A DNA stretch of 64,000 nucleotides from the NCBI GenBank assembly GCA_049322955.1, contig JBMOPU010000012.1, positions 83,581 through 147,580 of the forward strand, read 5' to 3'. This DNA comes from Patescibacteria group bacterium (GTDB taxonomy: Bacteria; Patescibacteriota; Microgenomatia; UBA10105; UBA927). This document shows positions 985 through 53,298 of this stretch, piece after piece. Numbering within the stretch: position 1 is the stretch's first letter; the number at the start of each line of letters is the position of its first letter. The position numbers were made by a program, and so were the translations under genes. The notes below the pieces were generated by a model. It saw nothing but the letters and a program-made list of their open reading frames with translations, was not told the origin of the DNA and made no database searches.

Positions 985-1096
985 GAGAGTATAGTACCTT
1001 TTTCTTGCATCTCCCGCTTTACGTATTGAGCGGGTCGGTCGTCTCCCCTTTCTCGGGTATCGCGTCGCGTGATACACTACCGTTGTTTTTCACCCT

Positions 1097-2583: not shown

Positions 2584-2597
2584 GTAATTTTGTGACA

Positions 2598-3296: not shown

Positions 3297-3333
3297 TCCG
3301 TGGTACGTTAATACAGTGGAGAGCAAACAATAC

Positions 3334-5070: not shown

Positions 5071-5189
5071 TGCGTCGCAGAAAAGGCCTCTTATAACACC
5101 AGAGATAATCTCGTGACTCAAAATATGTTCCCCTGGAAATATGTGGATGCTTGCTTTATCCTAGTAGCGCCAAAAAAGGTAATACAACT

Positions 5190-6314
5190 ATGCGTGTGAC
5201 TCTGTATCGGGATTACAAGGAAGAAGGATGGGAAAGCATGGAGGTCTATGCGGATAATCTGCATCGGTCACTGACAATGAGAAGAAAAGATCTCTCCGTG
5301 GGTGAATTCACCGCTCTTCCCGCTCTTTCACGGATATTTGCGGCAAACAATAAATTCCTTCGTTACTTTTTTCGTTTTGTCATTAATCCATTCTTTGCCA
5401 AATGGCATCAGGGGGATGTCAACCATATTATTGACCAGGCCAACGCGCATCTGCTGTATCGATTAGATCCCCGAAAAACAGTCGTCACTTGTCACGATCT
5501 TATCGTGCCCTATTGGGTTATGCACAACGTTCCGCAAACATATAAGAAGCGCATAAAAAGACTCGGCGAATTATGGAGGATACGTTTTTTAAAGAAAGCC
5601 GCAAAAATCATCGCCGTTTCACAGGCAACAAAAGATGATATCGTTCATACGCTTGGCATAGATCCCGGAAAAATTGTCGTTATTCACGAAGGCGTTGACG
5701 ATTTTTTCAAAAAACGGCCCGATGAACGAGATCTGCGTAAAGCAAAGATCGACCTTATGCTTCCCCGTCGGTATATCCTGCATGTGGGGACGACGCATGA
5801 GTATAAAAACATGGAAACGCTTATTTCGCTCTTCGCATCGCTGAGAAAAAAAGATAAAAATCTTTTTTTGGTAAAAGTGGGAGCACCGTGGACGGCTGAT
5901 CAACAGGTGCTTATTGAACGGCTCGGCTTGGGTAACTTTATACGTCACCTGGGATTTATTACCAAACGGGAACTTCCCGCGGTGTATCGTATGGCGGTCG
6001 CATTGGTACATCCGTCTCGTACGGAGGGATTCGGATTTACCGTTTTGGAAGCCATGGCAAGCGGCTGTCCGGTTATCGTGTCGGATATTCCCGCGCTTCG
6101 TGAACTTGTCGATACTGCCGGCATCTATATTCACCCCCTGCTCACAAAAAAAGATATACAACGTGTGGCCAGCCTCCTCAACTCTCCCCCTCTCTTACGT
6201 ACATATAGACTGCGCGGTCATAAACGTGCGGTGCGCTATTCTTGGCAAAATTGCGCAAGACAAACATACGGTCTTTATCAAGAAATAGTAAAGCGCAACA
6301 TACACCAACGATGA
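5190..6314 (+). CDS. GT4-family glycosyltransferase (retaining GT-B).
   Basis: C-terminal EGFGFTVLEAMASGCPVIVSDIPALRELV (the EX7E GT4 motif region); the first ATG is at 5190. Confidence 0.8.
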   Translation: MRVTLYRDYKEEGWESMEVYADNLHRSLTMRRKDLSVGEFTALPALSRIFAANNKFLRYFFRFVINPFFAKWHQGDVNHIIDQANAHLLYRLDPRKTVVTCHDLIVPYWVMHNVPQTYKKRIKRLGELWRIRFLKKAAKIIAVSQATKDDIVHTLGIDPGKIVVIHEGVDDFFKKRPDERDLRKAKIDLMLPRRYILHVGTTHEYKNMETLISLFASLRKKDKNLFLVKVGAPWTADQQVLIERLGLGNFIRHLGFITKRELPAVYRMAVALVHPSRTEGFGFTVLEAMASGCPVIVSDIPALRELVDTAGIYIHPLLTKKDIQRVASLLNSPPLLRTYRLRGHKRAVRYSWQNCARQTYGLYQEIVKRNIHQR

Positions 6315-7486
6315 ATATTGTTTTTGTTTCACTAAAATCGCCGGTCTCGTATTTGGGAGGTGCGGAAATACTTACGTTTGTGCTTGCCGAATCGCTTGTC
6401 AGTTCGGGGCATCGGGTAACTATCTATACCGCCGGAAACGGCGTGCGGAGAGTGCTCCGGGGCGTCACGATACAGGAGGTCAGGCTTTTTCGATTACCGT
6501 TGCGTTTCCGCACGACATTATTGCCATTGTACTCATTTGTTTTGCAATTTTTTTTCTATTTTAATAAAGATTTTCGCAACGCTTCTATCGTTCATGCCGT
6601 TGACAGTTCCGCCATCATGCTTCTTGCGGGTTGGCAATTTCTTGAAAAAAAACTCGTCGCGACCATCCAGGACTATACGCTTATTTGGCCAAAAAAAGAT
6701 TATTTTTCATACGGAAGCGAAAGAAAACGCGATCGCTCCATTGTGACCGCATTTGCCGAAGGAATCCGTCAAAAGAATAGTTACGCCGCTTTGCATAAAC
6801 TGACACATGTCATATGCGTCAGCGACTATGTCGCCAAACGATACAAGGAAGTGAACGATAAGACAAAAATTTCCGTTATAGGAAACGGTGTATCATCCGG
6901 ATGGAAAATGCCGCGGGCGATACATAAGCGAGACATCGACATACTGTATGTCGGCAAATTGATGCCGTATAAAGGACTGGATATCCTCCTTGATGCCCTT
7001 CCTTTATTGCCGAAATCTAGTAGGGTTAGCGTAGTTATTGTCGGGGAAGGGTTGCATGAGCGATATAAAAAACAATTACAAAAACTACGAATTCCCCATG
7101 AGGTGCTATTTACCGGCCCGATCCCGTATCGGGATATTCCCGATTTTTATCAGCGGTCAAAAATAGTCATATCGCCCTCTATTTGGCCTGAGCCCTGCGG
7201 GCGATCCATCATTGAAGCAATGTGGATGGGATGTGCAGTCGTGGCGACGAGCGTCGGCGGTACTCCGGAATCACTTGTAGATACACTACACGGGTATCTT
7301 GTTCCCCCCAACGATCCTAAAGCAATTGCCCGTGCAACGGGATACCTGCTTGCGCACCCCGTCATTCGCGACAGAATCGGCCGGCAGGCCGCATCATATG
7401 CACGAAAAAATTATTCGGCTCGGAGAATAGCCCGTGAGTACGTAAAATTCTATAGCTTGATAAAATCCCAACGACTGGTAATATAA
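6311..7486 (+). CDS. GT4-family glycosyltransferase.
   Basis: Has EPCGRSIIEAMWMGCAVVATSVGGTPESL. ATG 6311 overlaps the upstream stop as ATGA. Confidence 0.8.
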   Translation: MNIVFVSLKSPVSYLGGAEILTFVLAESLVSSGHRVTIYTAGNGVRRVLRGVTIQEVRLFRLPLRFRTTLLPLYSFVLQFFFYFNKDFRNASIVHAVDSSAIMLLAGWQFLEKKLVATIQDYTLIWPKKDYFSYGSERKRDRSIVTAFAEGIRQKNSYAALHKLTHVICVSDYVAKRYKEVNDKTKISVIGNGVSSGWKMPRAIHKRDIDILYVGKLMPYKGLDILLDALPLLPKSSRVSVVIVGEGLHERYKKQLQKLRIPHEVLFTGPIPYRDIPDFYQRSKIVISPSIWPEPCGRSIIEAMWMGCAVVATSVGGTPESLVDTLHGYLVPPNDPKAIARATGYLLAHPVIRDRIGRQAASYARKNYSARRIAREYVKFYSLIKSQRLVI

Positions 7487-7491
7487 GTGAT

Positions 7492-8307
7492 ATGAAAAAA
7501 TTGAAGCTCATAGTAAAGAACACTCGCCTTCTTGCCGTTGTGGGTATAGTTCTTATAGGAATTATTTTTTCGGGTATTCTTGCCTACCAGCTGTATATCC
7601 AGAAACCCACCTATGTCACCGTTCGTATTAAGGGTAGCCCGGGAAATTGGTGGTGGGTAACTCCCCGCCCTCCCGATTGGTTAGCTAGCTCGATTCGTCC
7701 CGGCGATAAAGAATTTAATGCAACAAATAAAGCAATTGCCGAGGTTATGTCGGTGGACGTCTATGATGCGGGAGGACCGACAAAAGACGTGTATCTTACC
7801 GCAAAGCTGGATGTGCGATACAACGCACAGACAAAAAAATACCGATATAAGGGCGAACCCCTTGAAATAGGCGGTCCGATCAGTTTAAGTCTTGGGAGCA
7901 CATTCTTCCCCGGTATGGTAACAAGCATTGCCGGTGAGAATGGCGGTGCCAAACAATATAAAAATATTATCGTCCATATACGATATAGAGACCGATGGCC
8001 GCACGAGTTTGAGGCTCTCAAAATCGGTGAAAAAATCCTTGACGGGGATAACAATGCCATTGCGGAAATAATCGCGAAAGAACGAAGACCGGCGGAGCGG
8101 GAGGTGCACACGGCAACCGGCCAGGTGCTCCAGCGCTTTAGTCCCGTTCTCGATGATTTTTTTGTTACCTTACGGCTTGCCGTTGAAACACGCGGGGAAC
8201 AATACGTCTATCGTGAGGAGCAATACATCAAGGTGGGTAATCAGCTGTGGCTTCTGTTCCCCCATTACAATCTAAGCGGTCCGACGATCACGAAGATAGA
8301 AGAGTAA
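7492..8307 (+). CDS. Hypothetical protein with an N-terminal signal-anchor and a large extracytoplasmic domain.
   Basis: 271 aa with one N-terminal transmembrane segment (LLAVVGIVLIGIIFSGILAY). No recognisable catalytic motif. Confidence 0.45.
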   Translation: MKKLKLIVKNTRLLAVVGIVLIGIIFSGILAYQLYIQKPTYVTVRIKGSPGNWWWVTPRPPDWLASSIRPGDKEFNATNKAIAEVMSVDVYDAGGPTKDVYLTAKLDVRYNAQTKKYRYKGEPLEIGGPISLSLGSTFFPGMVTSIAGENGGAKQYKNIIVHIRYRDRWPHEFEALKIGEKILDGDNNAIAEIIAKERRPAEREVHTATGQVLQRFSPVLDDFFVTLRLAVETRGEQYVYREEQYIKVGNQLWLLFPHYNLSGPTITKIEE

Positions 8308-8310
8308 CAC

Positions 8311-9855
8311 ATGGATAACACTGTCTATCCGGGTGCCATAAATGAGGTGCATTACGGGCTTCAAAAACAGACCCCCAGTTATCAAAGTGAATTTCCTAAC
8401 GATCTTCCCTTTGACCCCGGAGCAACCTCAAGTCTTTTTGAACTCAACTATTTTCCCTCGACGGCGTCGAGGCTTCTACTTATGATTCCGCTGGTGTTAC
8501 TTCTTTTTCTGTTTTTTTTTCGTAAATATGCAAAAAACAGACAGGGGGAATTATTATTTCTTATCGCGATGTCGCTTGTTTTTTTTGGTCCGCTAAGGCT
8601 TCCTTCATTCCTGCAATTTAATACGACACTCGGGTTAGTCAAAGGCGTAGGACTGTTGCTCCTCTTATATACTTTTGTTGGAATTGTCGTGAGAAAAGTG
8701 CGCTTTGATATTTTTGCCATACCTTCGCTTGTAAGGGTGGGTTCTTATGTGCTGAGCCTGATGCTTTCCGTATTGGTTATGACGAACCCCAGTTTTTTCC
8801 TTGACGATTTCGGTATTGTCATCACCGGCTTGTTATTTTATTTTTTCGGTTATCTATATTTTTCATGGGAAATGGCAAAAACGCTACTCCTTATGTGGGC
8901 ACGACTCCTAGTTATCCCCAGTTTTATGGTGATATTCATTTTTTTGAATAACGCGATCGGTAAAGAACTGGTTTCTCTCCTGTTTCAGCGGTATGATAAC
9001 TTTGTTTTTTTGCATGATCTGAATAGAGGAAGAATTTTTTCCGTTATCGACTTTGAGTACTTTATTCCGTGCATCGCAATGTTCTTTGTTGTCGCCAAAA
9101 CCCAGAGAAAACACCTGGCCGGATATCAGTTTGCATTGCTTACCGCGCTTTCGTTTATCGCAATATTGCTGGTGAATTATCGGTATAGATTTCTTACCTA
9201 CATGTTGGGACTTGTTACGGTGTCATTTCTTCTTAAAAAATTTTCTCCGATCATACGAAAATATACGACGATTATTATCGTTTCACTCGGCACCCTCTAT
9301 TTCTTTTTCTCTTTAGCATTTTTTAGATCAACAATTCTCGATCGGTTTTTGGTAAGAAACTATGCGGAAGATCAGGTGAGTATTGAGCGGCGATTTACGA
9401 TGTACGGTCAGGCTTGGGAGCTCTTTACACAAAAACCGATTCTCGGAGTAGGCCTCGGAAACTATAAGGATAACGTTCAAATAGTTTATTCACGATTTGG
9501 AGGTAGAACGTACGAACCGTACTATAAAATTCTCCAAAACGTCTATGCATACCCGCATAATTGGTTTCTCACCGTACTTGCGGAAAACGGCATTGTCGGA
9601 TTTGCGGTATTGATGTGGATGCTTATCATGTTCGGGGTGATGGATTTCAGGCTATACAAAAAACTTCCCCTGGAAAACCACGCAATTTTTGTGATTATAA
9701 GCACGATCAGCTGGTTATATATCTTTGCAAATATGTTCACGATGATGCACGTATCACTTCCCATGGTAATCGTTTTCTGGGCGTGTCGCGGAATGATCGA
9801 ACGGATGTATCTTGATCTGTCGATACAGAAGAAACTTCGCTCAGCGCGAAAGTAA
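8311..9855 (+). CDS. O-antigen ligase/polymerase-family membrane protein (Wzy/WaaL-like).
   Basis: 514 aa polytopic protein with GVGLGNYKD...YAYPHNWFLTVLAENGIVGFAVLMWML, typical of the Wzy_C/O-antigen ligase domain. Confidence 0.7.
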   Translation: MDNTVYPGAINEVHYGLQKQTPSYQSEFPNDLPFDPGATSSLFELNYFPSTASRLLLMIPLVLLLFLFFFRKYAKNRQGELLFLIAMSLVFFGPLRLPSFLQFNTTLGLVKGVGLLLLLYTFVGIVVRKVRFDIFAIPSLVRVGSYVLSLMLSVLVMTNPSFFLDDFGIVITGLLFYFFGYLYFSWEMAKTLLLMWARLLVIPSFMVIFIFLNNAIGKELVSLLFQRYDNFVFLHDLNRGRIFSVIDFEYFIPCIAMFFVVAKTQRKHLAGYQFALLTALSFIAILLVNYRYRFLTYMLGLVTVSFLLKKFSPIIRKYTTIIIVSLGTLYFFFSLAFFRSTILDRFLVRNYAEDQVSIERRFTMYGQAWELFTQKPILGVGLGNYKDNVQIVYSRFGGRTYEPYYKILQNVYAYPHNWFLTVLAENGIVGFAVLMWMLIMFGVMDFRLYKKLPLENHAIFVIISTISWLYIFANMFTMMHVSLPMVIVFWACRGMIERMYLDLSIQKKLRSARK

Positions 9856-11124
9856 ATGCTTTTGTCGCACGAGGAAAATACTTCCCGTAGCTTCTATCAC
9901 CCAACCCGCCGATATCGCATACGCAAGGTGCGCGCCATTAATAGTATTCTGGAAAAGCAGAAATATAATGATCGTGATAGCCCTGAGTATCGTCAGCAAA
10001 AAATTCTGTCGGGTGTAACCGGCCATATCAAGAAGTTGCCTGTTTGGCCATACCAATAACGCATACACGGTATAGGCAATCAGGAGAATGCTCAATATCG
10101 ATTCCGCCTGCTGATACGATTGTCCAAAAAGCAAAATGATAAGTGGTGAACGGATACTAAAGAGGATGAGAGCGGGAACAAAAACTGCCGGTGCCAACCA
10201 GCCAAGGAGCTTCATATAGACGGGTGCAACCGCACGATTTTGCGCATGGCGCTCGCTGGCTATCGGAAGGAAGATGGCAAAAACCATCTGGGGGATAATA
10301 TGCAATAACGTCGCGATAGAAATCGCCGCTCCGTATAATCCGACCTCCTGAGCTCCCGCATGTGCCTGAAGCAATGAAAGTGCCAAAATGCCCGTTGCGG
10401 CGGTAATAATTTCGGAGGCGCCGACGGGAATCGCATACGGTAAAAGACCGGGCGCAAGTTGCGGCATATACCTTGTTTGCGGGAGTGTTTTTGCCATGAG
10501 AACGATATTCGTCACCGCACCCAAACCCGTCCCTACCGCATATCCTATTAAGGCGCCCGTAATGGCATGATCGAAGATTGCCATGCCGGCAATCGTCCCG
10601 ACGAATCGCAATACGATCTCAGAAGCTTCCGCGGCGTAGGCTAAACGAACCTTCAGTAATCCGAAAAAAGCGGCCCGCACAACGAGCGTAACCCCCGCTC
10701 CGATGATTGCCGACGAGAGGACGCGAAAATAACGGGCGGCATGGGGTGCTTGGATCGCATCGGCGAAAGGTGAGGAAAAAATAAAAAGCGCTATCCCTGC
10801 GGCCAACGACGTCACTGTCACCAGTGTCATCCCCGACGTGATTGCGGACGGTATTTTGTTGTCCTGATTATTCCCGCGGAAATAGGAGACAAATCTGGTT
10901 ATACTCATCGGGATGCCGAACGCGGCAAGGGTAACGAGTCCGGTCAGCGTGGAGGTGGCAAAATAAAAATCACCAAAACCTTCTAAGCCAATTCGTGCGA
11001 CATAGATTTTAAGAATAAAGCTCAGGAGTTTGGATATCCCGATGAGGAGCGAACCGAAGAGAATGCTCGAGATAAATGATAGTTCGAGCGTACCGAAAGA
11101 GAAAGCGAATCGATTTTTATCCAT
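9841..11124 (-). CDS. MOP-superfamily polysaccharide flippase (Wzx-like).
   Basis: 427 aa with about 12 predicted transmembrane segments; N-terminal region typical of the polysaccharide biosynthesis protein family. The 3' end overlaps the convergent Wzy-like gene by 15 nt. Confidence 0.7.
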   Translation of the reverse strand: MDKNRFAFSFGTLELSFISSILFGSLLIGISKLLSFILKIYVARIGLEGFGDFYFATSTLTGLVTLAAFGIPMSITRFVSYFRGNNQDNKIPSAITSGMTLVTVTSLAAGIALFIFSSPFADAIQAPHAARYFRVLSSAIIGAGVTLVVRAAFFGLLKVRLAYAAEASEIVLRFVGTIAGMAIFDHAITGALIGYAVGTGLGAVTNIVLMAKTLPQTRYMPQLAPGLLPYAIPVGASEIITAATGILALSLLQAHAGAQEVGLYGAAISIATLLHIIPQMVFAIFLPIASERHAQNRAVAPVYMKLLGWLAPAVFVPALILFSIRSPLIILLFGQSYQQAESILSILLIAYTVYALLVWPNRQLLDMAGYTRQNFLLTILRAITIIIFLLFQNTINGAHLAYAISAGWVIEATGSIFLVRQKHLLSR

Positions 11125-11145
11125 GAGCGTATGAACTCTGCAAGG

Positions 11146-12159
11146 TTAGGCAGGGAGAATCACCCCAAAGTTCGGTTTATCGGGTATGGGAAAATGAATA
11201 CGCCCTTTGTCTTTGAGCGCTTCGAGTGCCACGCGGAATATTTTCTTTCTCATCATGGATTTTGCGGTGCACACCATCCAACACGCATCGCAGGAGGCGA
11301 CGCGTTTTGCGTATGTTTGGTTTGCGAGTATTTTTTCCATTGACTCCGTTTTGATATTTCCCATTTTCCACGGCTTGAGATGACACGTGTACACGTTGCC
11401 GAGTGAATCCATATAGAAAAAACCGGTTCCCGCATCGCAGACCAGCGCCCGCTTCCCCGTCTGGACAAACGAGATGAGCCGCTTGATAAACCACCCGCGC
11501 ATAAGTTCTTTCGGGGACATTCGCGCAAGATGTTTCCGTGCGGTTTCCTCAAGCCTCATTTCAAGCCGTTCAGGATTTTTCGGCCGGAGATTTTCCTTTC
11601 CCGAACCGAAGTATATAACCGAGTTCGTCGCTACCGTCATGGAAAACTCCACTCCTAAATCATCGGCAAGCTTTTGTACTTTCGGGAGTTCGTCGACATT
11701 TTGGTCGATAAGCGTGAATGCAATTCCCAAATCCCTGGTGCCCAGCTCCTTGGCAATTTTCAGGGATTCCATTATTTTTTTATATCCGCCGGGAATCCGC
11801 CGTATTGCATCATGCGCATCTCCGATACCGTCAATGGAAACACGAAAAGCAAAATTCGGATCAATTTCCAGAATCTTAGGAAGGTGTTTTTTTACCATAT
11901 GCGGCATGAACCCATTGGAATTCATGATAAATCGCGCGTTTGGAGCTGCAGATTTCATATTGCGGACAATTTCGACAATATCTTGCCGTAAGAACGGTTC
12001 ACCCCCGGTAATATTGATGTCTTTGAGGCTTGAAGGTAACTTTTTGTAAAACTCCGGAGGAAGTTCGTTGGGAATTTTATTTTTCCAAATATCACACATG
12101 ATGCACCGTGAGTTGCAGTTTAACGTGATGGCGATAATTGCGGATGTTGGTGAAACCAT
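11146..12159 (-). CDS. Radical SAM enzyme with a C-terminal SPASM/twitch-like Cys cluster.
   Basis: CNSRCIMC (CxxxCxxC) near the N-terminus. C-terminal cysteines in VCDAGTGFFYMDSLGNVYTCH...CDACWMVC. Confidence 0.75.
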   Translation of the reverse strand: MVSPTSAIIAITLNCNSRCIMCDIWKNKIPNELPPEFYKKLPSSLKDINITGGEPFLRQDIVEIVRNMKSAAPNARFIMNSNGFMPHMVKKHLPKILEIDPNFAFRVSIDGIGDAHDAIRRIPGGYKKIMESLKIAKELGTRDLGIAFTLIDQNVDELPKVQKLADDLGVEFSMTVATNSVIYFGSGKENLRPKNPERLEMRLEETARKHLARMSPKELMRGWFIKRLISFVQTGKRALVCDAGTGFFYMDSLGNVYTCHLKPWKMGNIKTESMEKILANQTYAKRVASCDACWMVCTAKSMMRKKIFRVALEALKDKGRIHFPIPDKPNFGVILPA

Positions 12160-12178
12160 AGCAAGCGAGACTATTGTA

Positions 12179-13369
12179 TCAGAAGTTATTTGGAAAATGT
12201 TTTGTCAGAATATCCCTGATCGTGCGCATTTTTTCCTCAAGGGTATTGCGAATCGCAATATCTTTTTGCTTTTTTATTTCCGCCTCTTTCGGTTTATGAG
12301 ACAACAGTTTCCGTAGCGCATCGGCGGCATGATCTTGGTTGCGGTAAATTGAAACCAAAGGCTCAAGCAGAAGTACCTCGGGAATCGGCGCAGACAACAG
12401 CGGTTTCCCCATATAGAGAAATTCCTGTATTTTCATGGGGTATGAAAAACGCACAAACTCATCGTCGGTATCATACGGGATGATGCCGGCATCCGAATGG
12501 CGGATGTATCGGTATATATCCTCCCTCCTCTTTGCTCCGAGAAAAAAAACATTTGGAAATTTTTTGAGCGTCGCAATATGTGAGAAAAGATCCTGGGACC
12601 GCATCGGGCGGTACTGAGGGTCAACCGCACCGACAAATACAAATGATATCCGGGACAAGGAGGTCAACATCTTCGTAATAACACGAAAATCCAAACGCAT
12701 ATTGATGTTTCCCAAAAATAACACCCGGGGATGAGGAACACCGCGAAGGTCGGTCGGCTCTGATATGCGCGTCAATTTCGGCCGAATAAACATTCCTTCG
12801 GGAGTTTGGAATACCCGCGGGTGCCGGGGGAAAAGCCGGGTAAATAAGGTGCGAGAGTTTGCAAAAACAACATGTGCACCGCTGAGTACGGCATCTTCAA
12901 CATGGGGAAAACCCGACGGATGATTGATGCGGAGCGGTCCGTCAACGCAGTCATATATTTTAAAGAATTGGTTGCCAAACCACCTCGGTAACACGGCATA
13001 TTGGAGCGAAAACATCCACAACACGCTCCCCTTATGTGTTCTTGGTAAAAAAAATCGCAGAATCAGCAGTAAAAGCTTCGTGCAAATCCAATGATTCACC
13101 GAAGCTATGTTGGAAAAACGATGAAACGGAATTATATAAAGCGGGGTATATATATATTCCGTTCCTTTTCGGGAGAGTATGGGTTCGGGGTGACGTAGCC
13201 AACGAAACAGAGTCTTTCCCTCATATACCCGATACAGGACGACCGTGTTATCCCGTGCGAGATAATATGCGGTAGTCCGCTCATAGTCGGCGCTCGAAGA
13301 AAGCGGTAAAGCGAGAGGAATCACGACGCACTGTCCGCTAAATGGTGTAACCCGCGATGTACTTCTCAT
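12179..13369 (-). CDS. GT-B (GT4/GT1-like) glycosyltransferase.
   Basis: Blocks RVLFLGNINMRLDFRV...FVFVGAVDP...NVFFLGAKRREDIYRYIRHSDAGIIPY. I chose the internal ATG at 13369 because the longer track ORF overlaps the divergent downstream gene. Confidence 0.55.
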   Translation of the reverse strand: MRSTSRVTPFSGQCVVIPLALPLSSSADYERTTAYYLARDNTVVLYRVYEGKTLFRWLRHPEPILSRKGTEYIYTPLYIIPFHRFSNIASVNHWICTKLLLLILRFFLPRTHKGSVLWMFSLQYAVLPRWFGNQFFKIYDCVDGPLRINHPSGFPHVEDAVLSGAHVVFANSRTLFTRLFPRHPRVFQTPEGMFIRPKLTRISEPTDLRGVPHPRVLFLGNINMRLDFRVITKMLTSLSRISFVFVGAVDPQYRPMRSQDLFSHIATLKKFPNVFFLGAKRREDIYRYIRHSDAGIIPYDTDDEFVRFSYPMKIQEFLYMGKPLLSAPIPEVLLLEPLVSIYRNQDHAADALRKLLSHKPKEAEIKKQKDIAIRNTLEEKMRTIRDILTKHFPNNF

Positions 13370-13446
13370 GAATGGATAGGTGCGGCAGTGAACAATCCGC
13401 TTTGTCCGAAGCTTTACTCGTTTGCACTTTATTATAGTATAGAAAT

Positions 13447-14715
13447 ATGCGGAAAATACACGCAACATACCGGCGCATCACCCAGGGCGTTTTCCTGAGG
13501 TTTTTTCTCCTGATACTTATCCTCTCGGCTCTTTTTGTCAATCTTGCAGTGAAGGTCAAAAGCGTTCCGTATGAGCTTGATGAGATCATGTACTTTAACG
13601 ATACGGAAGTGCTGGATGCATTTATCCGATTTGATTTTGTATCCCCCGTCTGGGACGAGCCCGCGGCTTTTATCCAACCGCCGATGTCAAAATACATATA
13701 TGGCATGTATCTTCATCTCCGTCACAACGACGTAGGGCAAGTTCGTGATGAAATCTTACAAAATAATAACCGATACTTTCTTGACCAAATTGACGTAGAA
13801 ACTATCTCCGGATCATCTTTGGAGCCGTATTTAATTTCAATGCGTCATGTCGCGTTATTCTTCGCATTTATCACACTGATCCTTTTTGGGTACATCATCT
13901 ATATGATCGTGCCGGACATACGGGTGACGATACTTCTGCTTCTGATCATCGTACAAAGCAGGCTGTTTTACACAACTATGCTCGTTGCAAAGCCCGATCC
14001 GATTTATCTGGCATTTTTACTTGCGGGCATCATTCTGTTTGAGCGGGGAATTGCACGAAAATCAATGCCCGCTCTTATGGGGTCGGCAATCTTAGGAGGG
14101 ATCAGTACGTCAACCATACTTACCGGAGCGCTCTTTTTTATGCTGATCCCGCCGCTTTTGATTGTTCATGGATTATTTGATCGCACGGCAAAGCTTCGGT
14201 TTTCCCTCGGCGCTTGTATACTCATGCTATATGCGGGGATGTGGACATGGTATATCGTGAATCCGTCTTTGTATAGAAACCCCGTCGCCAACACGGTAAA
14301 AAACATATCAATACGGCAGGAAGTGCTCTATTACCAACGGAAAATTCCGTTGAATCAGCCCGCAAAGATCGTTTCCTGGCACGATATGGGGGCATCGCTC
14401 TCCTGCGTATTTATCCGCCACAAGGAATCAGCTTGTGAAAACGGCGCTATTTCCCCCTGGCCGATTATAAACATAGCCCTGTTGCTCCTGGGAATGTACC
14501 ACATATTACGCAGAGTGCTCATCGATAGCGATCAGAAAGCGGCAACGGTGTTAACAAGCGCGCTGTTTATCATCAGTGTAGTGTGCGGATTTCTTCCGTT
14601 TAACTGGGCACGGTATTACCTTCCGGTATTTTTTATCTATTCGCTTATCAACGCATACGGCCTATGGTATCTATTACGATTTCTCCCCGGCTACCGGCCG
14701 CTTCGTGTCATATAA
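13447..14715 (+). CDS. Polytopic membrane protein, GT-C-like (ArnT/PMT-like) putative glycosyltransferase.
   Basis: 422 aa with many transmembrane segments. Acidic first-loop motifs (YELDEIMYF, VWDEPAAF) resemble GT-C DE/DD loops. Confidence 0.45.
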   Translation: MRKIHATYRRITQGVFLRFFLLILILSALFVNLAVKVKSVPYELDEIMYFNDTEVLDAFIRFDFVSPVWDEPAAFIQPPMSKYIYGMYLHLRHNDVGQVRDEILQNNNRYFLDQIDVETISGSSLEPYLISMRHVALFFAFITLILFGYIIYMIVPDIRVTILLLLIIVQSRLFYTTMLVAKPDPIYLAFLLAGIILFERGIARKSMPALMGSAILGGISTSTILTGALFFMLIPPLLIVHGLFDRTAKLRFSLGACILMLYAGMWTWYIVNPSLYRNPVANTVKNISIRQEVLYYQRKIPLNQPAKIVSWHDMGASLSCVFIRHKESACENGAISPWPIINIALLLLGMYHILRRVLIDSDQKAATVLTSALFIISVVCGFLPFNWARYYLPVFFIYSLINAYGLWYLLRFLPGYRPLRVI

Positions 14716-14755
14716 CCTAAAGGATGATAGAATACTTCCGTTTCCTCACAAGCGT

Positions 14756-15487
14756 ATGCACATCGGCATTATCGGCGGTACCGGTTTTGAAAATCATCAA
14801 TGGCTCGTCGGGAAGAAAACGAAAATTCAGAAGACGAAGGCCGGATTTCCTTCCTCTCCTCTTCTGACTGGAGTTATTCACGGACATCAGGTCGCCGTTA
14901 TATCACGCCACGGAAAAAATCATCAATATGCCCCCACACATGTTCCGTACGCCGCTAACATTCTCGCACTAAAATCATTAGGATGTACGCATATTCTTGC
15001 CACCACCGCGTGCGGGTCGCTTCGGAGGGCGATGAAACCAGGTGATATCGTTTTTGTTGATCAGATGATCGACATGACAAAACACCGGGATGACACCTTG
15101 TTTCATAGCCGGCCGACGCATACTGCTATGGCGGAACCCTTTGATGAAAAACTTCGGGCTATTTTGGTTCGAGCCGCCCGCTTACGTGGTATGCATTTTC
15201 ATTCAAGCGGCACGATTGTCACCATCGAAGGGCCCAGATTCTCTACCCGGGCAGAGTCCCGAATGTTCCGGATGCTCGGTGCCGACGTGATTAATATGAC
15301 CACGGCAACCGAGGCGGTTCTCGCAAGGGAAGCGGGACTCTCCTACCAGGCTATTGCTATGGTGACCGATTATGATTCTTGGGACAAACGAATTTCTCCC
15401 GTCACGGAAGAGGTTGTCTTTGATAGGATGAAGAAATCGACGCAGGCAATACAGGAGTTACTGCATTTGGCGATATCTCATATATAA
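14756..15487 (+). CDS. S-methyl-5'-thioadenosine / purine nucleoside phosphorylase (MTAP family).
   Basis: Has MHIGIIGGTGF...HILATTACGSLRRAMKPGDIVFVDQMIDMT...GPRFSTRAESRMFRMLGADVINMTTATEAVLAREAG, the PNP/MTAP family blocks. Confidence 0.8.
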   Translation: MHIGIIGGTGFENHQWLVGKKTKIQKTKAGFPSSPLLTGVIHGHQVAVISRHGKNHQYAPTHVPYAANILALKSLGCTHILATTACGSLRRAMKPGDIVFVDQMIDMTKHRDDTLFHSRPTHTAMAEPFDEKLRAILVRAARLRGMHFHSSGTIVTIEGPRFSTRAESRMFRMLGADVINMTTATEAVLAREAGLSYQAIAMVTDYDSWDKRISPVTEEVVFDRMKKSTQAIQELLHLAISHI

Positions 15488-15495
15488 TACCCTTG

Positions 15496-16239
15496 ATGAA
15501 ACGCACGTTTATCCATCAGGGTATGAGCGACTTAGGAGTACGCGACAGGCTAAGGATCTTGTTCCGTCACTATATCCTCCACCCGCTCTTCGGAGATATG
15601 TTCACGAATACGGAACTTATTCATGAACTTATCGAGTATTACGATGGGTATCAGTTGCAAAACGCAAATTCGAAAAAAGGGATACTGGGATTTGGGTTGA
15701 TTCATTACGCCCTGATAACGAATTTGCGTCCCCGTCGCTTGCTGTGTATCGGTTCGAAGAAGGGATTTGTTCCCGCAATCTGTGCCCTCGCCTGTAAGCA
15801 TAATGGGTTTGGGAAAGTGGATTTTGTCGATGCGGGTTATGGGGAGTCGGACGCAACAAATCAATGGGGAGGGGTGAGTCTTTGGCGTCGGATTAATCCG
15901 CGAAGCCATTTTTCGTTTTTGGGACTCGACGCGTTTATTCAACCGTTTATCATGACCACGAAGGAATTTATCAAACGAGAAAAGCATCGTTACCAGTATA
16001 TCCATGTTGACGGTGACCACTCATATGAAGGAGTAAAAAATGACGTGCTGGGGGTGTGGCCGCGTTTATCTAAAAACGGGTATTTGGTTCTTCATGATGT
16101 CACTGTTCGCCATATGAATAATCAGCCCGACTATGGCGTATGGAGACTATGGAATGAAATAAGCGGGGCAAATAAAATTTTAGTCGACCAATCGGCAGGA
16201 TTAGGAATTATCCAGAAGAAATCAAACAGATTGTTTTAA
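15496..16239 (+). CDS. Class I SAM-dependent methyltransferase (Methyltransf_24/CmcI/TylF-like), likely a sugar O-methyltransferase.
   Basis: Has LLCIGSKKGFVP...VDFVDAGYGE...IHVDGDHSYEGVKNDVLGVWPRLSKNGYLVLHD. Confidence 0.65.
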   Translation: MKRTFIHQGMSDLGVRDRLRILFRHYILHPLFGDMFTNTELIHELIEYYDGYQLQNANSKKGILGFGLIHYALITNLRPRRLLCIGSKKGFVPAICALACKHNGFGKVDFVDAGYGESDATNQWGGVSLWRRINPRSHFSFLGLDAFIQPFIMTTKEFIKREKHRYQYIHVDGDHSYEGVKNDVLGVWPRLSKNGYLVLHDVTVRHMNNQPDYGVWRLWNEISGANKILVDQSAGLGIIQKKSNRLF

Positions 16240-16243
16240 AAAT

Positions 16244-17272
16244 ATGAAACTACTCGTTACGGGAGGATGCGGTTTTGCCGGATCACATATCTGCGAATAT
16301 TTTAGGAAAGAAGGTGCAACCGTTGTGTCGTACGACAATCTGACGACCCATGAGCTTATGCGAACCGGTTACAAAGCCACAAGCGCCAGGCAGTACAACG
16401 AATCACTGCTTCGGTCGATAGGGGTGAAGATGGTGAAGGGAGACATTCGCGATTTATCCGCGCTGGCTTCTCATGCAAAAAGCGCGGACTATATTATCCA
16501 TACGGCGGCTCAACCCGCCGTGACCATATCCCTAGAGGATCCGGTGTTGGACTTTACCACCAACGCGGTGGGCACGTTCAACGTGCTTGAATGCGCGCGA
16601 AAATACAAAATACCGACCGTTTCCTGTGCGACCATTCACGTCTATGGCAATGAGCTCAACCAAATGCTTACGGAAGAAAAAACACGGTATGCGTATGCCA
16701 AAAAAACAATTGCGGAATCCTTCCCGATTGGGAACGGAGTGCTCACCCCGCTTCATGCATCAAAAATCGCGGGTGATACCCTGGTGAAGGCATATGCGGA
16801 CTCTTTTCGTCTGCCGGTAGCCTCGTTTCGCCTCACCGGCCTTTACGGCACACGGCAGTTCGGTGGTGAAGATCACGGATGGGTAGCAAATTTTGTCATT
16901 CGTGCCCTGACACAACGGCAAATTACGGTCTACGGAAACGGAAAACAGGTGCGCGATATTTTATACGTCACCGATTTGGTAAAAGCATTTGAGCGATTTT
17001 ATCGCTACCAAAAAGCAGGCATTTACAATATCGGGGGAGGTCTTCCCACCAAAATTTCACTCATCGAGACGCTATCGCTTATAGAAAAACTGGTAAAAAC
17101 TCCGCTGAACGTATCATATCAGCCGGGAAGGGTCGGAGATCTCCGATACTTTGTTTGTGACATAGCGCGTGCCAAAAGACATCTTCATTGGAGGCCTCTG
17201 GTCTCCCCCAAAACGGGTATCACCCATATGATACGGTGGGTGAAAAAAAACATGGAGCTTTTTACCGAATGA
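16244..17272 (+). CDS. NAD-dependent epimerase/dehydratase (extended SDR; CDP-paratose-2-epimerase/UDP-Glc-4-epimerase-like).
   Basis: N-terminal VTGGCGFAGSH Rossmann motif, SCATIHVYG, and C-terminal YNIGGG. The YxxxK region is atypical (YAYAKK ... LHASKIAGD). Confidence 0.7.
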   Translation: MKLLVTGGCGFAGSHICEYFRKEGATVVSYDNLTTHELMRTGYKATSARQYNESLLRSIGVKMVKGDIRDLSALASHAKSADYIIHTAAQPAVTISLEDPVLDFTTNAVGTFNVLECARKYKIPTVSCATIHVYGNELNQMLTEEKTRYAYAKKTIAESFPIGNGVLTPLHASKIAGDTLVKAYADSFRLPVASFRLTGLYGTRQFGGEDHGWVANFVIRALTQRQITVYGNGKQVRDILYVTDLVKAFERFYRYQKAGIYNIGGGLPTKISLIETLSLIEKLVKTPLNVSYQPGRVGDLRYFVCDIARAKRHLHWRPLVSPKTGITHMIRWVKKNMELFTE

Positions 17273-18018
17273 CAAAGAACACACTTACCATCGGAGTTAT
17301 TCCGGCGGCCGGTGCCGGAACACGGTTAGGGTATCTCAGCACGGTACTGCCGAAAGCGCTTTTCCCGTTGTATGACCGGCCGATCCTTCATTATGTCATT
17401 AACCAGATGCAATCCCTCGGTATTGAAGATATTTACATCGTCATTCACGTGTATGGGGATAAAATTATGGAATATTGTCGAAACATACAGGGAAGCCTGA
17501 AGGCAAGAATCCATTTTGTTCATCAGCCGAAACTCTTGGGAACAGCAGATGCGATTCTCCGAACGGAGCAATATATAGGCAAGAATCCCTTTCTTGTCAT
17601 GTATGGCGACGATTGTACCGTTTCCGATTCCCTCCCCGAGCTTCTTTCTTTTTTCCAATCATCCGACGGGGTCGTAACGGAGGCCGTCATACGTGAAAAA
17701 CGAACGACAATTCTTCAACAAACATGTTCCGTCAAATTATTGCGAAATCATAAAATTGCGGAAATTTTAGAAAAACCGAAACGGCCGCCGTATCCGATGC
17801 GCGGGTGTGGCGTCTATGCTTTTCGATCTGAAATATTTCGCCATATTCGTCAAACGCCCTTGCATGCTCAGCGAAAGGAGCGCGAGATAACATACACCAT
17901 TAATCAATTGGCACAACAAGGCAAGGCATACGGGTATCCTATACGCGGGCATAATATAAATATTAATAACTATGACGAGCTCATCCGCGCAAGTTTTTTG
18001 GTGAAGCGGACGCGGTAG
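17269..18018 (+). CDS. Sugar-phosphate nucleotidyltransferase (NDP-sugar pyrophosphorylase; RfbA/RfbF-like).
   Basis: Has IGVIPAAGAGTRLGYLSTVLPKALFPLYDRPILHYVI. ATG 17269 overlaps the upstream stop as ATGA. Confidence 0.75.
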   Translation: MTKNTLTIGVIPAAGAGTRLGYLSTVLPKALFPLYDRPILHYVINQMQSLGIEDIYIVIHVYGDKIMEYCRNIQGSLKARIHFVHQPKLLGTADAILRTEQYIGKNPFLVMYGDDCTVSDSLPELLSFFQSSDGVVTEAVIREKRTTILQQTCSVKLLRNHKIAEILEKPKRPPYPMRGCGVYAFRSEIFRHIRQTPLHAQRKEREITYTINQLAQQGKAYGYPIRGHNININNYDELIRASFLVKRTR

Positions 18019-18067: not shown

Positions 18068-19468
18068 ATGAAATCTAATTTCATTGTCATCGGCGCGGGT
18101 CCTGCCGGACTTGCCTGCGGATATGAGTTGACGCGTCTTATACCGGGGAACCGACAAAACATCATCGTGTTAGAAAAAAACGCATTGCCCGGCGGTCTGG
18201 CCCGCTCCAGTACATTTCGGGGGCGCGTGTATGATATCGGACCGCACCGATTCTATACAAAAAATATGGAAGTGCTTCGTTTGTGGAAAAAACTGCTCGG
18301 GCGGGATTTTCGAAGGGTAAAGCGACACACCCGCATTTTTTATAAGGGGAAGTATTTCCATTACCCGCTGGATATGCTGGACGTCATTATCAATATAGGA
18401 GTTATTGAGTCATTGAAGTGTCTGATAAGTTATGCGGGAGCGCAGATTGCTTATAGGGGCAAGGAATCAAAAACCTTTGAAGATTGGGTGATCGCCCATT
18501 TCGGGAAAAGGCTTTATGAAATGTTTTTTCAAAGTTATACGGAAAAGGTATGGGGAATACCGTGCAAAGAAATTGCGGCAAAGTGGGCAAGCCAACGGAT
18601 AAAAAATCTGGATTTTAAGGAGCTCCTATTAACCGCATTGCATATACGGACAACGCCCAACGCCAAGAGTTTGGTGAAAGAATTTTATTACCCCAAAAAA
18701 GGGGCGGGACAGATGTATCGGAAGATAGCCGAGGTAATACGCCGGAAGAACGGAAAAGTAGCGTTACGATCTTCGGTTACACGAATGCGGGTGAAAGGCG
18801 ATGTGATCGCGTCCGTGACGTATACGAAGGCGGGCAAAGAATATACGTTACCGGCAACGGAAGTGTTTTCAAGTATGCCAATTACCTCCTGTATTGAGGC
18901 CTTGGAACCCCCTCCTCCCAAAAAGGTTTTGCTCGCTTCCCGATCATTACGCTACCGGGATCATATAACGGTAAATCTTTTGGTGAAGGGAAACAATATC
19001 TTCCCGGATCAATGGATTTATATTCATGACAAACAGGTAAAAGCGGCAAGAATCGCCAATTACAATAACTTCTCCGATCGGCAATCCTCATTGAGGCAAA
19101 GCGCGTTATCCGTCGAATATTTTGTTTTCCGTACCGATTCATTATGGCGGGCAAAAGATGAAGCTCTTATCGCTTTTGCAACGGAGGAATTGCAACGAAT
19201 TGGATTACTCCGGCACGGAGCGGTTATTGATGGCTTTGTGGTAAGGGAGGCGGATTCTTATCCGATGTATTTTGTCGGGTACGAATCACATTTTGCTACC
19301 GTTTCACGGTATCTTTCATCGATACGAAACCTTCACCTTATCGGCCGTGGCGGCATGTATAAATATAATAATATGGATCACTCAATGATCGACGGATTGA
19401 TTTCCGCAAGGAATATGGTGCATTCGGGCACGATGAAACAAAAGGAAACCCATGATTATCTTGAATAA
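18068..19468 (+). CDS. FAD-dependent oxidoreductase of the amine-oxidase/UDP-galactopyranose-mutase-like superfamily.
   Basis: Has FIVIGAGPAGLACGYEL (GxGxxG)...LEKNALPGGLARS...YDIGPHRFYT. It is 466 aa, longer than canonical Glf. Confidence 0.55.
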   Translation: MKSNFIVIGAGPAGLACGYELTRLIPGNRQNIIVLEKNALPGGLARSSTFRGRVYDIGPHRFYTKNMEVLRLWKKLLGRDFRRVKRHTRIFYKGKYFHYPLDMLDVIINIGVIESLKCLISYAGAQIAYRGKESKTFEDWVIAHFGKRLYEMFFQSYTEKVWGIPCKEIAAKWASQRIKNLDFKELLLTALHIRTTPNAKSLVKEFYYPKKGAGQMYRKIAEVIRRKNGKVALRSSVTRMRVKGDVIASVTYTKAGKEYTLPATEVFSSMPITSCIEALEPPPPKKVLLASRSLRYRDHITVNLLVKGNNIFPDQWIYIHDKQVKAARIANYNNFSDRQSSLRQSALSVEYFVFRTDSLWRAKDEALIAFATEELQRIGLLRHGAVIDGFVVREADSYPMYFVGYESHFATVSRYLSSIRNLHLIGRGGMYKYNNMDHSMIDGLISARNMVHSGTMKQKETHDYLE

Positions 19469-20678
19469 GACAATTCAGTCGAATGTCTTCGTAACGTATG
19501 CGTTGATTCTTACGATTATCTCCGGCATAGTATTTATCTTTCGAGGATATCCAGAAACAACGACCCCCCAAAGTCATCAGCGGGAACTGGGTATTTTTCA
19601 TCGAGTTGTTGTGGGTAATATTGCGCAAAATAACGGTCTTGTGGCGAGTAAATTCGGCATGCTGTTGCGTCTTCCAAAAGACGGCGAATACTACTATACA
19701 CACCATCCGACCTTATATACCGTACTTTTGTATAGCGTGTATAGCGTGATCGGAAAGTACGCATTTTTCCTCATGCCGTTTTTCACCTCGCTCGGGATCA
19801 TTTTGTGCCTCTACGTCGTTATCGCGAAAGCCTCTACTCTCCCCGTTGGTTTCTGGTCGGCGATGCTTTTGACAATTCATCCGTTATTTCTTCGTTATTC
19901 GTTATTTATAAACTACGATCCGTTAACGCTCCTCCTTGCGATACTTGCACTTGGTATATTTGTTTGGAGAGTCCTTGACAGAGAGAAACCGTCGTGGCTT
20001 CCGTTATATGCGGTGCTTATCGTGTCCATGCTTGTTGATTGGCCGGGATATTTTTTGACGTACTGCATACTCGCCTACTATGCGATCATAAAACGGTCGA
20101 TGCGCCTTGATACCCACTGTTATATCCTGTTTTTTCTGCCGATAGGGATGTTTTTGGGGTTTCTTGCGCATAACGTATGGTTAACCGGCTCCATAAACGG
20201 CGGAAATTTATTACGGACCTTCATCGGGCGGGTTTCGAATGCCGGAGAAGTTGATTTTTTCGGAGGCATACGTCCGAATAAACCCCCGTATGCAACGTAC
20301 GGTGATTTTTTGTTATTTCTTATCCATAACCTATTCCGTCACGGCACAATGCCGTACGTCATAAGCGGTCTCGCCGGCGCATTGATCGGCCGGCGCAGTT
20401 CTCACAGTAGTCGCATACGTCTCTTTAGCGGACTCGTATTTATCATCGGCATATCATTTCTCCTGGTCTTTAATTCATTCGCGTTTTATCATGATTTTTC
20501 TCTCCTGCAGGTGCTCCCGGCATTTACGGTGATGACTGCCGTGTTATTTTTTGAAGTCGTACGATGGATATCCAAACGTACAGATTTCATAGCAACGGGA
20601 TCATTTTTGACCACGGAGCGAGCGTATCACGTGCTCCTTTTTATTTTTGCGCTGTTCATTCTTATAACGGGGTCATGA
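19452..20678 (+). CDS. Polytopic membrane protein of the glycan locus (possible GT-C-like glycosyltransferase).
   Basis: 408 aa with at least 9 hydrophobic segments. Loop motif YYTHHPTLY. No soluble domain. Confidence 0.4.
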   Translation: MIILNKTIQSNVFVTYALILTIISGIVFIFRGYPETTTPQSHQRELGIFHRVVVGNIAQNNGLVASKFGMLLRLPKDGEYYYTHHPTLYTVLLYSVYSVIGKYAFFLMPFFTSLGIILCLYVVIAKASTLPVGFWSAMLLTIHPLFLRYSLFINYDPLTLLLAILALGIFVWRVLDREKPSWLPLYAVLIVSMLVDWPGYFLTYCILAYYAIIKRSMRLDTHCYILFFLPIGMFLGFLAHNVWLTGSINGGNLLRTFIGRVSNAGEVDFFGGIRPNKPPYATYGDFLLFLIHNLFRHGTMPYVISGLAGALIGRRSSHSSRIRLFSGLVFIIGISFLLVFNSFAFYHDFSLLQVLPAFTVMTAVLFFEVVRWISKRTDFIATGSFLTTERAYHVLLFIFALFILITGS

Positions 20679-24700: not shown

Positions 24701-24716
24701 GGGTATTCTGAAATCG

Positions 24717-30870: not shown

Positions 30871-30941
30871 AAGCATAAAGAGAGCCTCCCCTGCCCTTAG
30901 TCTAATTGCATCTTCGTTCGGCTTTTGTTACAGTTTTCTTA

Positions 30942-32552: not shown

Positions 32553-32571
32553 TTTTGATACAATAAGGGGC

Positions 32572-53277: not shown

Positions 53278-53298
53278 TTTGGTATTCACCCGTACAAG

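Follow-up and report, generated by a model that had tools for sequence, protein, structure and literature searches.

Sugar-acting radical S-adenosylmethionine (SAM) enzymes are, to our knowledge, known so far almost only from antibiotic pathways, as exemplified by BtrN, NeoN, HygY, AprD4, DesII and BlsE. BlsE, the cytosylglucuronate decarboxylase of blasticidin S biosynthesis, acts on a sugar (a glucuronide) and carries a CxxxCxMC variant of the SAM-cluster motif that was noted as unusual (PMC3715490). NeoN, HygY and AviX12, from the biosynthesis of aminoglycosides and orthosomycins, are twitch radical SAM (rSAM) enzymes whose substrate is an assembled (pseudo)oligosaccharide, in which they invert an unactivated stereocentre of a sugar; Cys249 of NeoN is the hydrogen-atom donor in this epimerisation (PMC10991966). 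BtrN and SpeY hold a single auxiliary [4Fe-4S] cluster on a beta-hairpin and a CxxC motif, and act on a sugar or cyclitol. Uncharacterised rSAM genes beside glycosyltransferase (GT) genes have also been reported from lipooligosaccharide or capsule loci: on a Brachyspira hyodysenteriae plasmid (rSAM, GT1 and an rfb block; PMC4267127) and, next to 3'-phosphoadenosine-5'-phosphosulfate (PAPS)/sulfotransferase genes, in the capsule region of Campylobacter jejuni HS:19 (CjjRM3420_1441 and 1449; PMC8743553). Here we analyzed an rSAM gene at positions 11146 to 12159, on the minus strand, of a 64,000-nucleotide stretch of DNA from a Patescibacteria group bacterium (contig JBMOPU010000012.1, positions 83,581 to 147,580; hereafter the window). 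Its product has the cofactor motifs and the fold of an rSAM enzyme, belongs to a family whose genes are recurrently linked to, and in places fused with, genes of glycan assembly, and has no features of a peptide maturase. We regard it as very probably a glycan-tailoring enzyme. Taking everything together, the explanation toward which we lean is that it epimerises a sugar of a lipid-linked surface-glycan repeat unit.

The radical SAM protein

The open reading frame (ORF) is intact, running from an ATG at 12159 to a TAA at 11148-11146, and encodes 337 amino acids. Its SAM-cluster motif is CNSRCIMC (C15-x3-C19-x2-C22), and Pfam Radical_SAM (PF04055) matches above the gathering score (E 1.6e-17). 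Five more cysteines lie in the C-terminal region, namely C241 (VCDAG), C259 (YTCH) and C290, C293 and C297 (CDACWMVC). All of these cysteines had been pointed out in an earlier inspection of the letters of this DNA (the sequence-only reading), which classed the protein as a SPASM/twitch enzyme. Pfam SPASM matched with E 6.3e-6 (26.8 bits vs a cutoff of 21.5), and only over model positions 1-51 of 67. The spacing of the C-terminal cysteines, a CX12GX4C hairpin followed by CX2CX3C, is not the seven-cysteine pattern of a full SPASM domain (PF13186/TIGR04085; CX9-15GX4C...CX2CX5CX3C...C), and alignment with CteB showed that the CX5C spacing and the final cysteine of SPASM are missing. In the twitch subclass (BtrN, MoaA and SkfB), a single auxiliary cluster is held by two cysteines of such a hairpin and one or two more further downstream. 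C241-X12-G254-X4-C259 falls on predicted strands (E247-250 and E255-257) and C290xxC293 in a loop before a helix (296-305), as in twitch domains, and the hairpin aligns with those of SkfB, BlsE, BtrN and CteB. These features point to a twitch, or partial SPASM, domain at the C terminus, so that this half of the earlier label stands and a full SPASM domain does not.

An alignment of 30 sequences (42-91% identity) shows little or no variation at any of the eight cysteines and also conserves GGEPF, together with a number of Arg, Lys, His and aromatic positions; G52-G53-E54-P55 is invariant both there and in the alignment of the family. The CxxxCxMC variant of the cluster motif occurs in 278 of 340 family sequences. 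No transmembrane segment or signal peptide was apparent on reading the sequence, and the protein is predicted to be soluble and cytoplasmic.

The AlphaFold2 model of the protein (pLDDT 91.3, pTM 0.88) consists of alternating beta/alpha elements, and Foldseek assigned a probability of 1.00 to matches with more than 40 rSAM structures. The sequence-only reading had suggested a comparison with BtrN and anSME. The top solved neighbour was instead the sugar-acting BlsE (PDB 7VOB; Foldseek E 3e-15, template modelling (TM) scores TMq 0.68 and TMt 0.70, 17% identity), followed by SkfB (TM 0.64) and then by CteB, anSME, MoaA, SuiB and PqqE; BtrN matched only weakly (TMq 0.43, with BtrN and SpeY together spanning 0.33-0.43). 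At the sequence level, the best PDB matches were SkfB, CteB and anSME, with E 5e-18 for the SkfB profile. Profile hidden Markov models (HMMs), another check suggested earlier, placed the protein in no non-glycan family: no NCBIfam model reached its cutoff, and the best was TIGR04053 (77 bits vs 395).

BlsE resembles the window protein in its size, its lack of an N-terminal peptide-binding domain, and its CxxxCxMC and GGEP motifs, and its sugar substrate agrees with the role proposed here. It differs in belonging to a nucleoside-antibiotic pathway of Streptomyces rather than to Wzx/Wzy loci, in the arrangement of its C-terminal cysteines and, as far as the alignment shows, in having no equivalent of the WMxCT motif of the family. 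Membership of the BlsE family (TIGR04466) was rejected, with 45.7 bits against a cutoff of 400 and a Wzx/Wzy glycan locus in place of a nucleoside cluster. BtrN, which shares the single-cluster architecture, is smaller (about 250 amino acids) and has no fifth conserved cysteine. NeoN, HygY and AviX12 belong to secondary metabolism and act on small soluble substrates, whereas the window family is found in primary surface-glycan loci, with GT fusions, mainly in anaerobes including the Candidate Phyla Radiation (CPR) and DPANN. The hairpin motif CX9-15GX4C of SkfB, CteB and anSME aligns with the window protein, but SkfB and CteB possess N-terminal RRE domains, CteB and anSME have a full seven-cysteine SPASM domain with two auxiliary clusters, and the peptide or protein substrates of all three are encoded nearby; none of these features is present here. 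The window protein is functionally nearest to the sugar-acting twitch enzymes BlsE, NeoN, HygY and BtrN and is a member of none of these groups; by its sequence it belongs to a distinct family for which NCBIfam has no model. Full-text searches of the literature turned up no paper describing this family.

Genomic context of the family

Homology searches yielded 1,091 homologues at E<=1e-5, the nearest being 93% and 91% identical, and an exhaustive profile search gave 1,026 50%-identity clusters at E<=1e-30. The statement of the sequence-only reading that sugar-acting members are rare must be abandoned, as this family alone comprises about 1,000 such clusters and is very abundant in gut metagenomes. 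To define the genomic context, one genome per species was scanned, giving 564 confirmed loci; 80 of these were analyzed, and their neighbours were clustered from our own ORF calls. The hosts of the 80 loci are CPR/Patescibacteria, Acidobacteriota, Chloroflexota, Planctomycetota, Verrucomicrobiota, Fibrobacterota, Bacteroidales, Clostridia, and DPANN and other archaea.

Family 4 GT (GT4) genes were present in 59 of the 80 loci, nearly always on the same strand as the rSAM gene; they lay no more than two genes away in 46 loci and were adjacent in 33, and GT4-rSAM-GT4 was a frequent order. The partners form two subfamilies: a DUF1972-type subfamily, GT4a (38 loci), mostly directly downstream of the rSAM gene, and GT4b (36 loci), mostly directly upstream, with both found together in 27 loci. 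No known equivalog was found for the partner GT4s, the nearest being Cps2T at 91 bits vs a cutoff of 500. Of the 115 neighbours that lay no more than two genes away and were not GT4s, 15 belonged to Wzy_C and about 10 were class-I SAM methyltransferases, these being the commonest families. Short-chain dehydrogenase/reductase (SDR) genes recur near the rSAMs of the family.

The first 27.8 kb or so of the window make up a region of surface-glycan genes. The rSAM gene is the middle one of a three-gene minus-strand run, preceded after a gap of 19 nt by a divergent GT-B-like glycosyltransferase gene (12179-13468, cluster c22) and followed after 21 nt by the gene for a Wzx-type flippase (9841-11124; Polysacc_synt E 6.5e-16). 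The flippase had been named as the neighbour of the rSAM before, and this identification is confirmed. The upstream gene had been called a GT4; it is glycosyltransferase-like, but too divergent for that assignment, with 22 bits on Glycos_transf_1 (cutoff 26.4) and 43 bits on a TuaH-like model, and its orthologues pass Glyco_trans_1_4. Judging from a 397-residue orthologue, its translation probably begins some 30 codons after the ATG given for the ORF. The operon is convergent with plus-strand genes for a Wzy_C-family polymerase/ligase (8311-9855), a DUF4330 protein with one N-terminal transmembrane segment (7492-8307) and two GT4s (6242-7486 and 5151-6314). The first of these GT4s is nearest to subfamily GT4b (sub1; 134.5 bits vs 96.4 on sub0) and the second to GT4a (sub0, DUF1972-type; 116 bits vs 64 on sub1), and the trio of GT4a, rSAM and GT4b thus seems to be present in the window in rearranged form.

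These seven genes (GT-like, rSAM and Wzx, convergent with Wzy_C, DUF4330, GT4 and GT4) constitute a core that is kept in the orthologous loci L001, L083 and L085 at 62-93% identity; a search for the same neighbouring GTs in other genomes had been among the checks suggested earlier. The flanks of the core vary between the orthologous loci. The CPR module at L083 (2309-5627) is flanked by sulfotransferase genes and a gene for a B12-binding rSAM, a different protein from the family rSAM, and that at L085 (4193-6746) by genes for a TauE exporter and a bifunctional ATP-sulfurylase/adenosine-5'-phosphosulfate kinase. These sulfur-activation and sulfotransferase genes suggest that CPR bacteria make sulfated surface glycans. 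The combination of rSAM, GT and PAPS genes in the HS:19 capsule region of C. jejuni resembles the flanks of both loci. Membership of the B. hyodysenteriae plasmid rSAMs in the family was not supported, no match being detected at E<=1e-8. L001 (CAYUZE010000001.1), the 93%-identical syntenic orthologue, comes from a metagenome-assembled genome (MAG) labelled "uncultured Gammaproteobacteria"; its gene content is CPR-like and the 91% match is labelled Candidatus Gottesmanbacteria, and the gammaproteobacterial label is probably wrong.

The module is also found in cultured organisms. Segatella copri DSM 18205 carries a glycosyltransferase gene, the rSAM gene (WP_050758626.1), a GT4 gene and a nucleotidyltransferase gene, and Pseudobutyrivibrio xylanivorans MA3014 carries a GT-rSAM-GT4 arrangement (rSAM WP_151625889.1) in an exopolysaccharide (EPS) locus of pNP95; in both, the rSAM is annotated just as "radical SAM protein". 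The S. copri locus (L081; NZ_CP085934.1) is flanked by insertion sequence elements.

Fusions to glycan-assembly enzymes

Every abnormally long family member that we examined proved to be a fusion to a glycan-assembly enzyme, and many of these fusions are independent of one another. The rSAM domain precedes its partner in rSAM-GT4(DUF1972) (L057), rSAM-methyltransferase (P0182) and rSAM-GHL15-FG-GAP (P0170), and follows it in GT2-rSAM (L028, P0153 and P0184), GT4-rSAM (P0185, P0186 and P0261), Glyco_tran_28_C-rSAM (P0136) and LicD-rSAM (P0326, P0345 and P0387); rSAM-rSAM (P0255) and GT2-rSAM-rSAM (P0267) also occur. One giant architecture, GT2-coiled-coil-GT2-GT4-rSAM-rSAM, is a single ORF of 2,224 amino acids (L067, 5465-12139) in a Candidatus Omnitrophota MAG, in which the family rSAM is followed by a second rSAM/SPASM domain; it resembles a whole glycan-tailoring assembly line in one polypeptide. 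A further fusion, rSAM-LicD (L087, 1449-3539), lies in a Gram-positive-type locus with genes for a DUF1972-GT4, LicD, IspD (CDP-polyol cytidylyltransferase), an SDR, a class II aldolase/epimerase, Gtf3, Wzy_C and Wzx, and the locus is followed by a gene for a choline-binding-repeat protein of more than 3,000 amino acids.

The donors used by the fusion partners differ (UDP, GDP or dTDP sugars, CDP-alcohols and SAM), and their common acceptor is the growing lipid-linked glycan. We infer from this that the rSAM acts on a lipid-linked intermediate and not on a specific nucleotide sugar, an assignment that we consider probable, though with some reserve. According to the alternative, the substrate would be a soluble nucleotide-sugar (or CDP-polyol) donor, and the rare activated sugar so made would serve the transferase next to the rSAM or fused to it. 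A diphosphate ligand would be compatible with the presence of about ten basic residues that are conserved (R58, R106, R120, K188, R237 and others), nucleotidyltransferase genes occur in some loci (window 17188-18018, S. copri, and IspD at L087), and DesII and viperin are rSAM precedents that act on nucleotide substrates. However, undecaprenyl-diphosphate-linked glycans also carry a diphosphate, so the basic residues do not discriminate between the two; genes of nucleotide-sugar pathways accompany the rSAM much less regularly than GT4 and Wzy_C do; and GT2, GT4, GT28-C, LicD, methyltransferase and GHL15 as fusion partners have unrelated donors. We therefore consider a nucleotide-sugar substrate unlikely.

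Cysteine patterns and C297

We aligned 340 family sequences to the family HMM and typed them by their cysteine patterns. C15, C19 and C22 are 100% conserved in all three types. Type A (235 sequences), to which the window protein belongs, has all five C-terminal cysteines. Type B (34 sequences; gut Bacteroidales and Firmicutes, Fibrobacter and Planctomycetes) keeps the hairpin cysteines and CX3C, with glycine replacing C297 (CWMIGT). Type C (35 sequences; CPR and DPANN, several of them fusions) has lost the four putative cluster ligands and keeps C297 (WMICTAR). Since C297 is retained in type C when the other four C-terminal cysteines are gone, it should have a role independent of the cluster. 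Most simply, the ligands of the auxiliary cluster would be C241, C259, C290 and C293, as in BtrN.

The residue at 297 changes in step with those at 110 and 116, the combination being D/H/C in 260 sequences, E/N/G in 27 and mixed in fewer than 15. This pattern is suggestive of a functional coupling, and in the window protein the extra C297 would be paired with D110 and H116. NeoN and HygY use a conserved non-ligand cysteine as hydrogen donor, and in HygY its loss reportedly unmasks dehydrogenase activity. Likened to these cysteines by description and not by alignment, C297 is suggested to be a candidate hydrogen-donor thiol. All three types are found in the same GT4b-rSAM-GT4a module, which fits a radical for which a thiol and an Fe-S cluster are alternative means of quenching.

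Type-B relatives fall into more than 7,700 90%-identity clusters, some of which have 5,000-10,000 metagenomic members each. Type-B rSAMs are 85-87% identical between Segatella and Clostridia/Erysipelotrichia (Faecalicoccus pleomorphus and "MULTISPECIES Clostridia"; P0268-P0387). Such identity implies a recent horizontal transfer of the type-B module across phyla in gut communities.

Proposed reaction and alternatives

In the mechanism that we propose, the protein would bind one [4Fe-4S] cluster for SAM through C15, C19 and C22 and a twitch-type auxiliary [4Fe-4S] cluster, most likely on the four ligands named above. It would tailor a repeat-unit sugar on the lipid carrier, built by the neighbouring GTs, before flipping by Wzx, after which Wzy_C would polymerise or ligate the modified unit. 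Reductive cleavage of SAM would generate a 5'-deoxyadenosyl radical, which would take a hydrogen atom from an unactivated sugar carbon, and the thiol of C297, aided by H116 and D110, would return one on the opposite face to give the epimer, with a rare sugar configuration. The auxiliary cluster may be structural, may re-reduce the thiyl radical, or both. Epimerisation as the reaction, argued by analogy with NeoN and HygY, seems to us plausible while still falling short of probable.

Several observations weigh against this reading. BlsE, the top structural match, catalyses a decarboxylation instead of an epimerisation, and epimerase structures (EpeE), like BtrN, match less well (TM 0.43-0.54). 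The co-variation of D110, H116 and C297 may go back to one event, the branching off of a type-B clade, and not to a coupling that arose repeatedly. With cluster-only, cysteine-only and cluster-plus-cysteine enzymes in one module, either the chemistry differs among them or a reaction common to them all needs neither feature. Finally, the window rSAM is not directly flanked by the canonical GT4 subfamilies, of which only diverged relatives are present, 3.7 kb away.

The sequence-only reading had proposed a radical modification of a sugar by oxidation, epimerisation or C-alkylation. The glycan role has held up; C-alkylation is unlikely, as there is no cobalamin domain, and a class B cobalamin-dependent C-methyltransferase of the GenK type was rejected because the protein has no match to the B12-binding domain (PF02310). 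Oxidation would correspond to a dehydrogenase like BtrN or SpeY that turns a hydroxyl group of the sugar into a ketone and passes the electrons to the auxiliary cluster, leaving reduction, transamination or C/O-methylation to neighbouring enzymes. A twitch domain with a four-cysteine auxiliary cluster is the architecture of BtrN, SAM methyltransferases are frequent as neighbours and also occur as fusion partners, SDR genes recur nearby, and type B, with the cluster and without C297, fits this reaction best. The window protein, however, is of type A with C297 and H116, and a cysteine of the HygY type diverts the radical to epimerisation, a point made by analogy only; moreover, type C lacks an electron-accepting cluster, yet occurs in the same module, and BtrN is a poor structural match. 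For the window protein, we judge a dehydrogenase quite unlikely.

We regard a lyase-type reaction as no less improbable. The enzyme would then decarboxylate a uronic acid to a pentose, as BlsE does, or carry out a dehydration (deoxygenation) like AprD4, DesII or viperin, and C297 or the auxiliary cluster would serve to quench the substrate radical reductively. BlsE ranks first among the structural matches, the rare CxxxCxMC motif is common to both proteins, and alternative quenching by cysteine or cluster would explain types B and C in the same module. On the other hand, the BlsE equivalog score (45.7 bits vs 400) and the identity of 17% are low, UDP-glucose dehydrogenase does not recur close to the rSAM genes, and there is no conserved partner reductase of the AprD3 type.

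That the polyprenyl carrier or another lipid, and not the sugar, is modified by saturation, cyclisation or HpnH-like adenosylation is very improbable. There are weak generic matches to HpnH (4.5e-13) and GDGT-MAS, and a methylthioadenosine phosphorylase (MTAP)/PNP-family gene at 14705-15487 recalls the HpnH-HpnG pair. The HpnH match, though, reaches only 48.9 bits vs a cutoff of 225, and no lipid-biosynthesis genes recur among the neighbours. The MTAP-like gene, on the plus strand two genes from the rSAM gene, encodes a near-canonical purine/methylthioadenosine phosphorylase (TIGR01694, 270.5 bits vs a cutoff of 274.85) and is co-conserved with the rSAM gene in none of the 80 related loci. Adenosylation through this gene was rejected accordingly, as it looks like a housekeeping gene. 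Its product could salvage 5'-deoxyadenosine or methylthioadenosine from SAM-consuming enzymes.

Peptide maturation was examined from several sides. The protein starts at the rSAM core, without an N-terminal RRE/PqqD-like domain or any Pfam RRE/PqqD match; its residues 4-6 align to SkfB 108-110 and residue 46 to CteB 150. No intergenic Cys/Gly-rich small ORF was found in window positions 9000-15500, and the gaps on both sides of the rSAM gene leave no room for one. The larger flanking gaps of related loci contain no conserved small ORF, and both gaps are at most 60 nt in 31 of 61 loci. A maturase of ribosomally synthesized and post-translationally modified peptides (RiPPs) was rejected on these grounds, and the earlier statement that no precursor peptide lies nearby holds. 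An anSME was rejected in view of five rather than seven or eight C-terminal cysteines, an anSME profile match of only 35 bits and the lack of a sulfatase neighbour, no sulfatase being annotated among the neighbours in the window or in related loci. The preference for a glycan-modifying enzyme over a RiPP or sulfatase maturase, already expressed in the sequence-only reading, is supported by the cross-phylum glycan-locus context, the recurrent GT4 partners and the fusions. Most characterised SPASM/twitch enzymes are peptide maturases and the nearest PDB and NCBIfam sequence matches include SkfB, CteB, PapB, WgkB and anSME, but all of these fall far under the family cutoffs (PapB, for example, 61 bits vs 340), the fusions are exclusively to glycan enzymes, and the locus lacks recognition domain, precursor and sulfatase alike, which makes a maturase forming sactipeptide or ranthipeptide thioethers, epimerising a peptide, or installing formylglycine like anSME on a peptide or surface protein scarcely credible. 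A role in defence was likewise rejected: the PADLOC model pVip matched with 31 bits over residues 10-112 only, the generic rSAM core, and the neighbours had no PADLOC match.

Other features of the window

The plus strand at 1097-9855 encodes, in order, FdtA, a DegT aminotransferase, a GT2, a protein with nine transmembrane segments and no assigned family, and the two GT4s, DUF4330 and Wzy_C described above; the GT2 is short (2592-3296). Beyond the operon, the plus strand carries genes for a protein with seven transmembrane segments and no assigned family, the MTAP-like enzyme, a methyltransferase, an SDR dehydratase/epimerase, the nucleotidyltransferase, an FAD/GLF-like protein, a second such seven-segment protein and a GDSL protein. 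Four multi-pass membrane proteins with 4-9 predicted transmembrane segments lie among the glycan genes (13447-14715, 3160-5070 and 19452-20678, plus strand; 1-1077, minus strand). They have no Pfam or NCBIfam match and may be GT-C-type transferases dependent on polyprenyl-phosphate sugars. A further GT4 gene and an ABC-2 pair (ABC_tran and ABC2_membrane) adjoin the Wzx/Wzy locus on the minus strand (23453-24838 and 26319-27772), and with this pair beside Wzx/Wzy the glycan region may encode two export routes. A 321-residue ORF at 25336-26301 (minus strand) matches QueC over its last 47 or so residues only (profile 161-209 of 210), and its product may be a divergent or fused PP-loop ATPase.

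Outside the glycan region, three consecutive large ORFs of 707, 548 and 465 amino acids without a Pfam match lie at 28747-33969 (plus strand), followed by a gene for a MurD-like ligase (33924-35333) and one for an 821-residue DUF4012 protein (40807-43272, plus strand). Two tRNA-Met (CAT) genes about 1 kb apart, at 53298-53370 and 54413-54485 (minus strand), were the sole RNA genes detected in the window.

Discussion

The window copy is one ordinary member of its family, and there is good support for its glycan role. The novelty lies in the setting: Wzx/Wzy surface-glycan loci, dedicated GT4 partners, many GT fusions, and a range from CPR and DPANN to the human gut. As a tentative proposal, possible rather than likely, the family might be the first rSAM class dedicated to primary surface-glycan assembly. 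It would consist of radical epimerases of lipid-linked oligosaccharides, with a dehydrogenase variant in type B, that provide rare stereochemistries out of reach of NAD-dependent epimerases, such as those of L-hexoses made from D-hexoses. The portable three-gene module GT4-rSAM-GT4 would have spread from CPR/DPANN to the dominant gut Bacteroidales and Firmicutes, and the cysteine types would form a series in which the quenching device, thiol or Fe-S cluster, is swapped. This natural series offers a ready-made test of the epimerase/dehydrogenase switch.

If the proposed function is correct, radical chemistry would extend into mainstream cell-envelope glycobiology, and the family would account for the way in which strict anaerobes produce the unusual sugars of their capsules, EPS and S-layer glycans. 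The abundance of type B and its exchange across phyla in the gut imply that the modification likely affects capsule antigenicity, phage receptors and host recognition. In CPR and DPANN organisms, whose metabolism is minimal, the retention of so costly an enzyme implies that the modified glycan would be important for episymbiotic surface biology.

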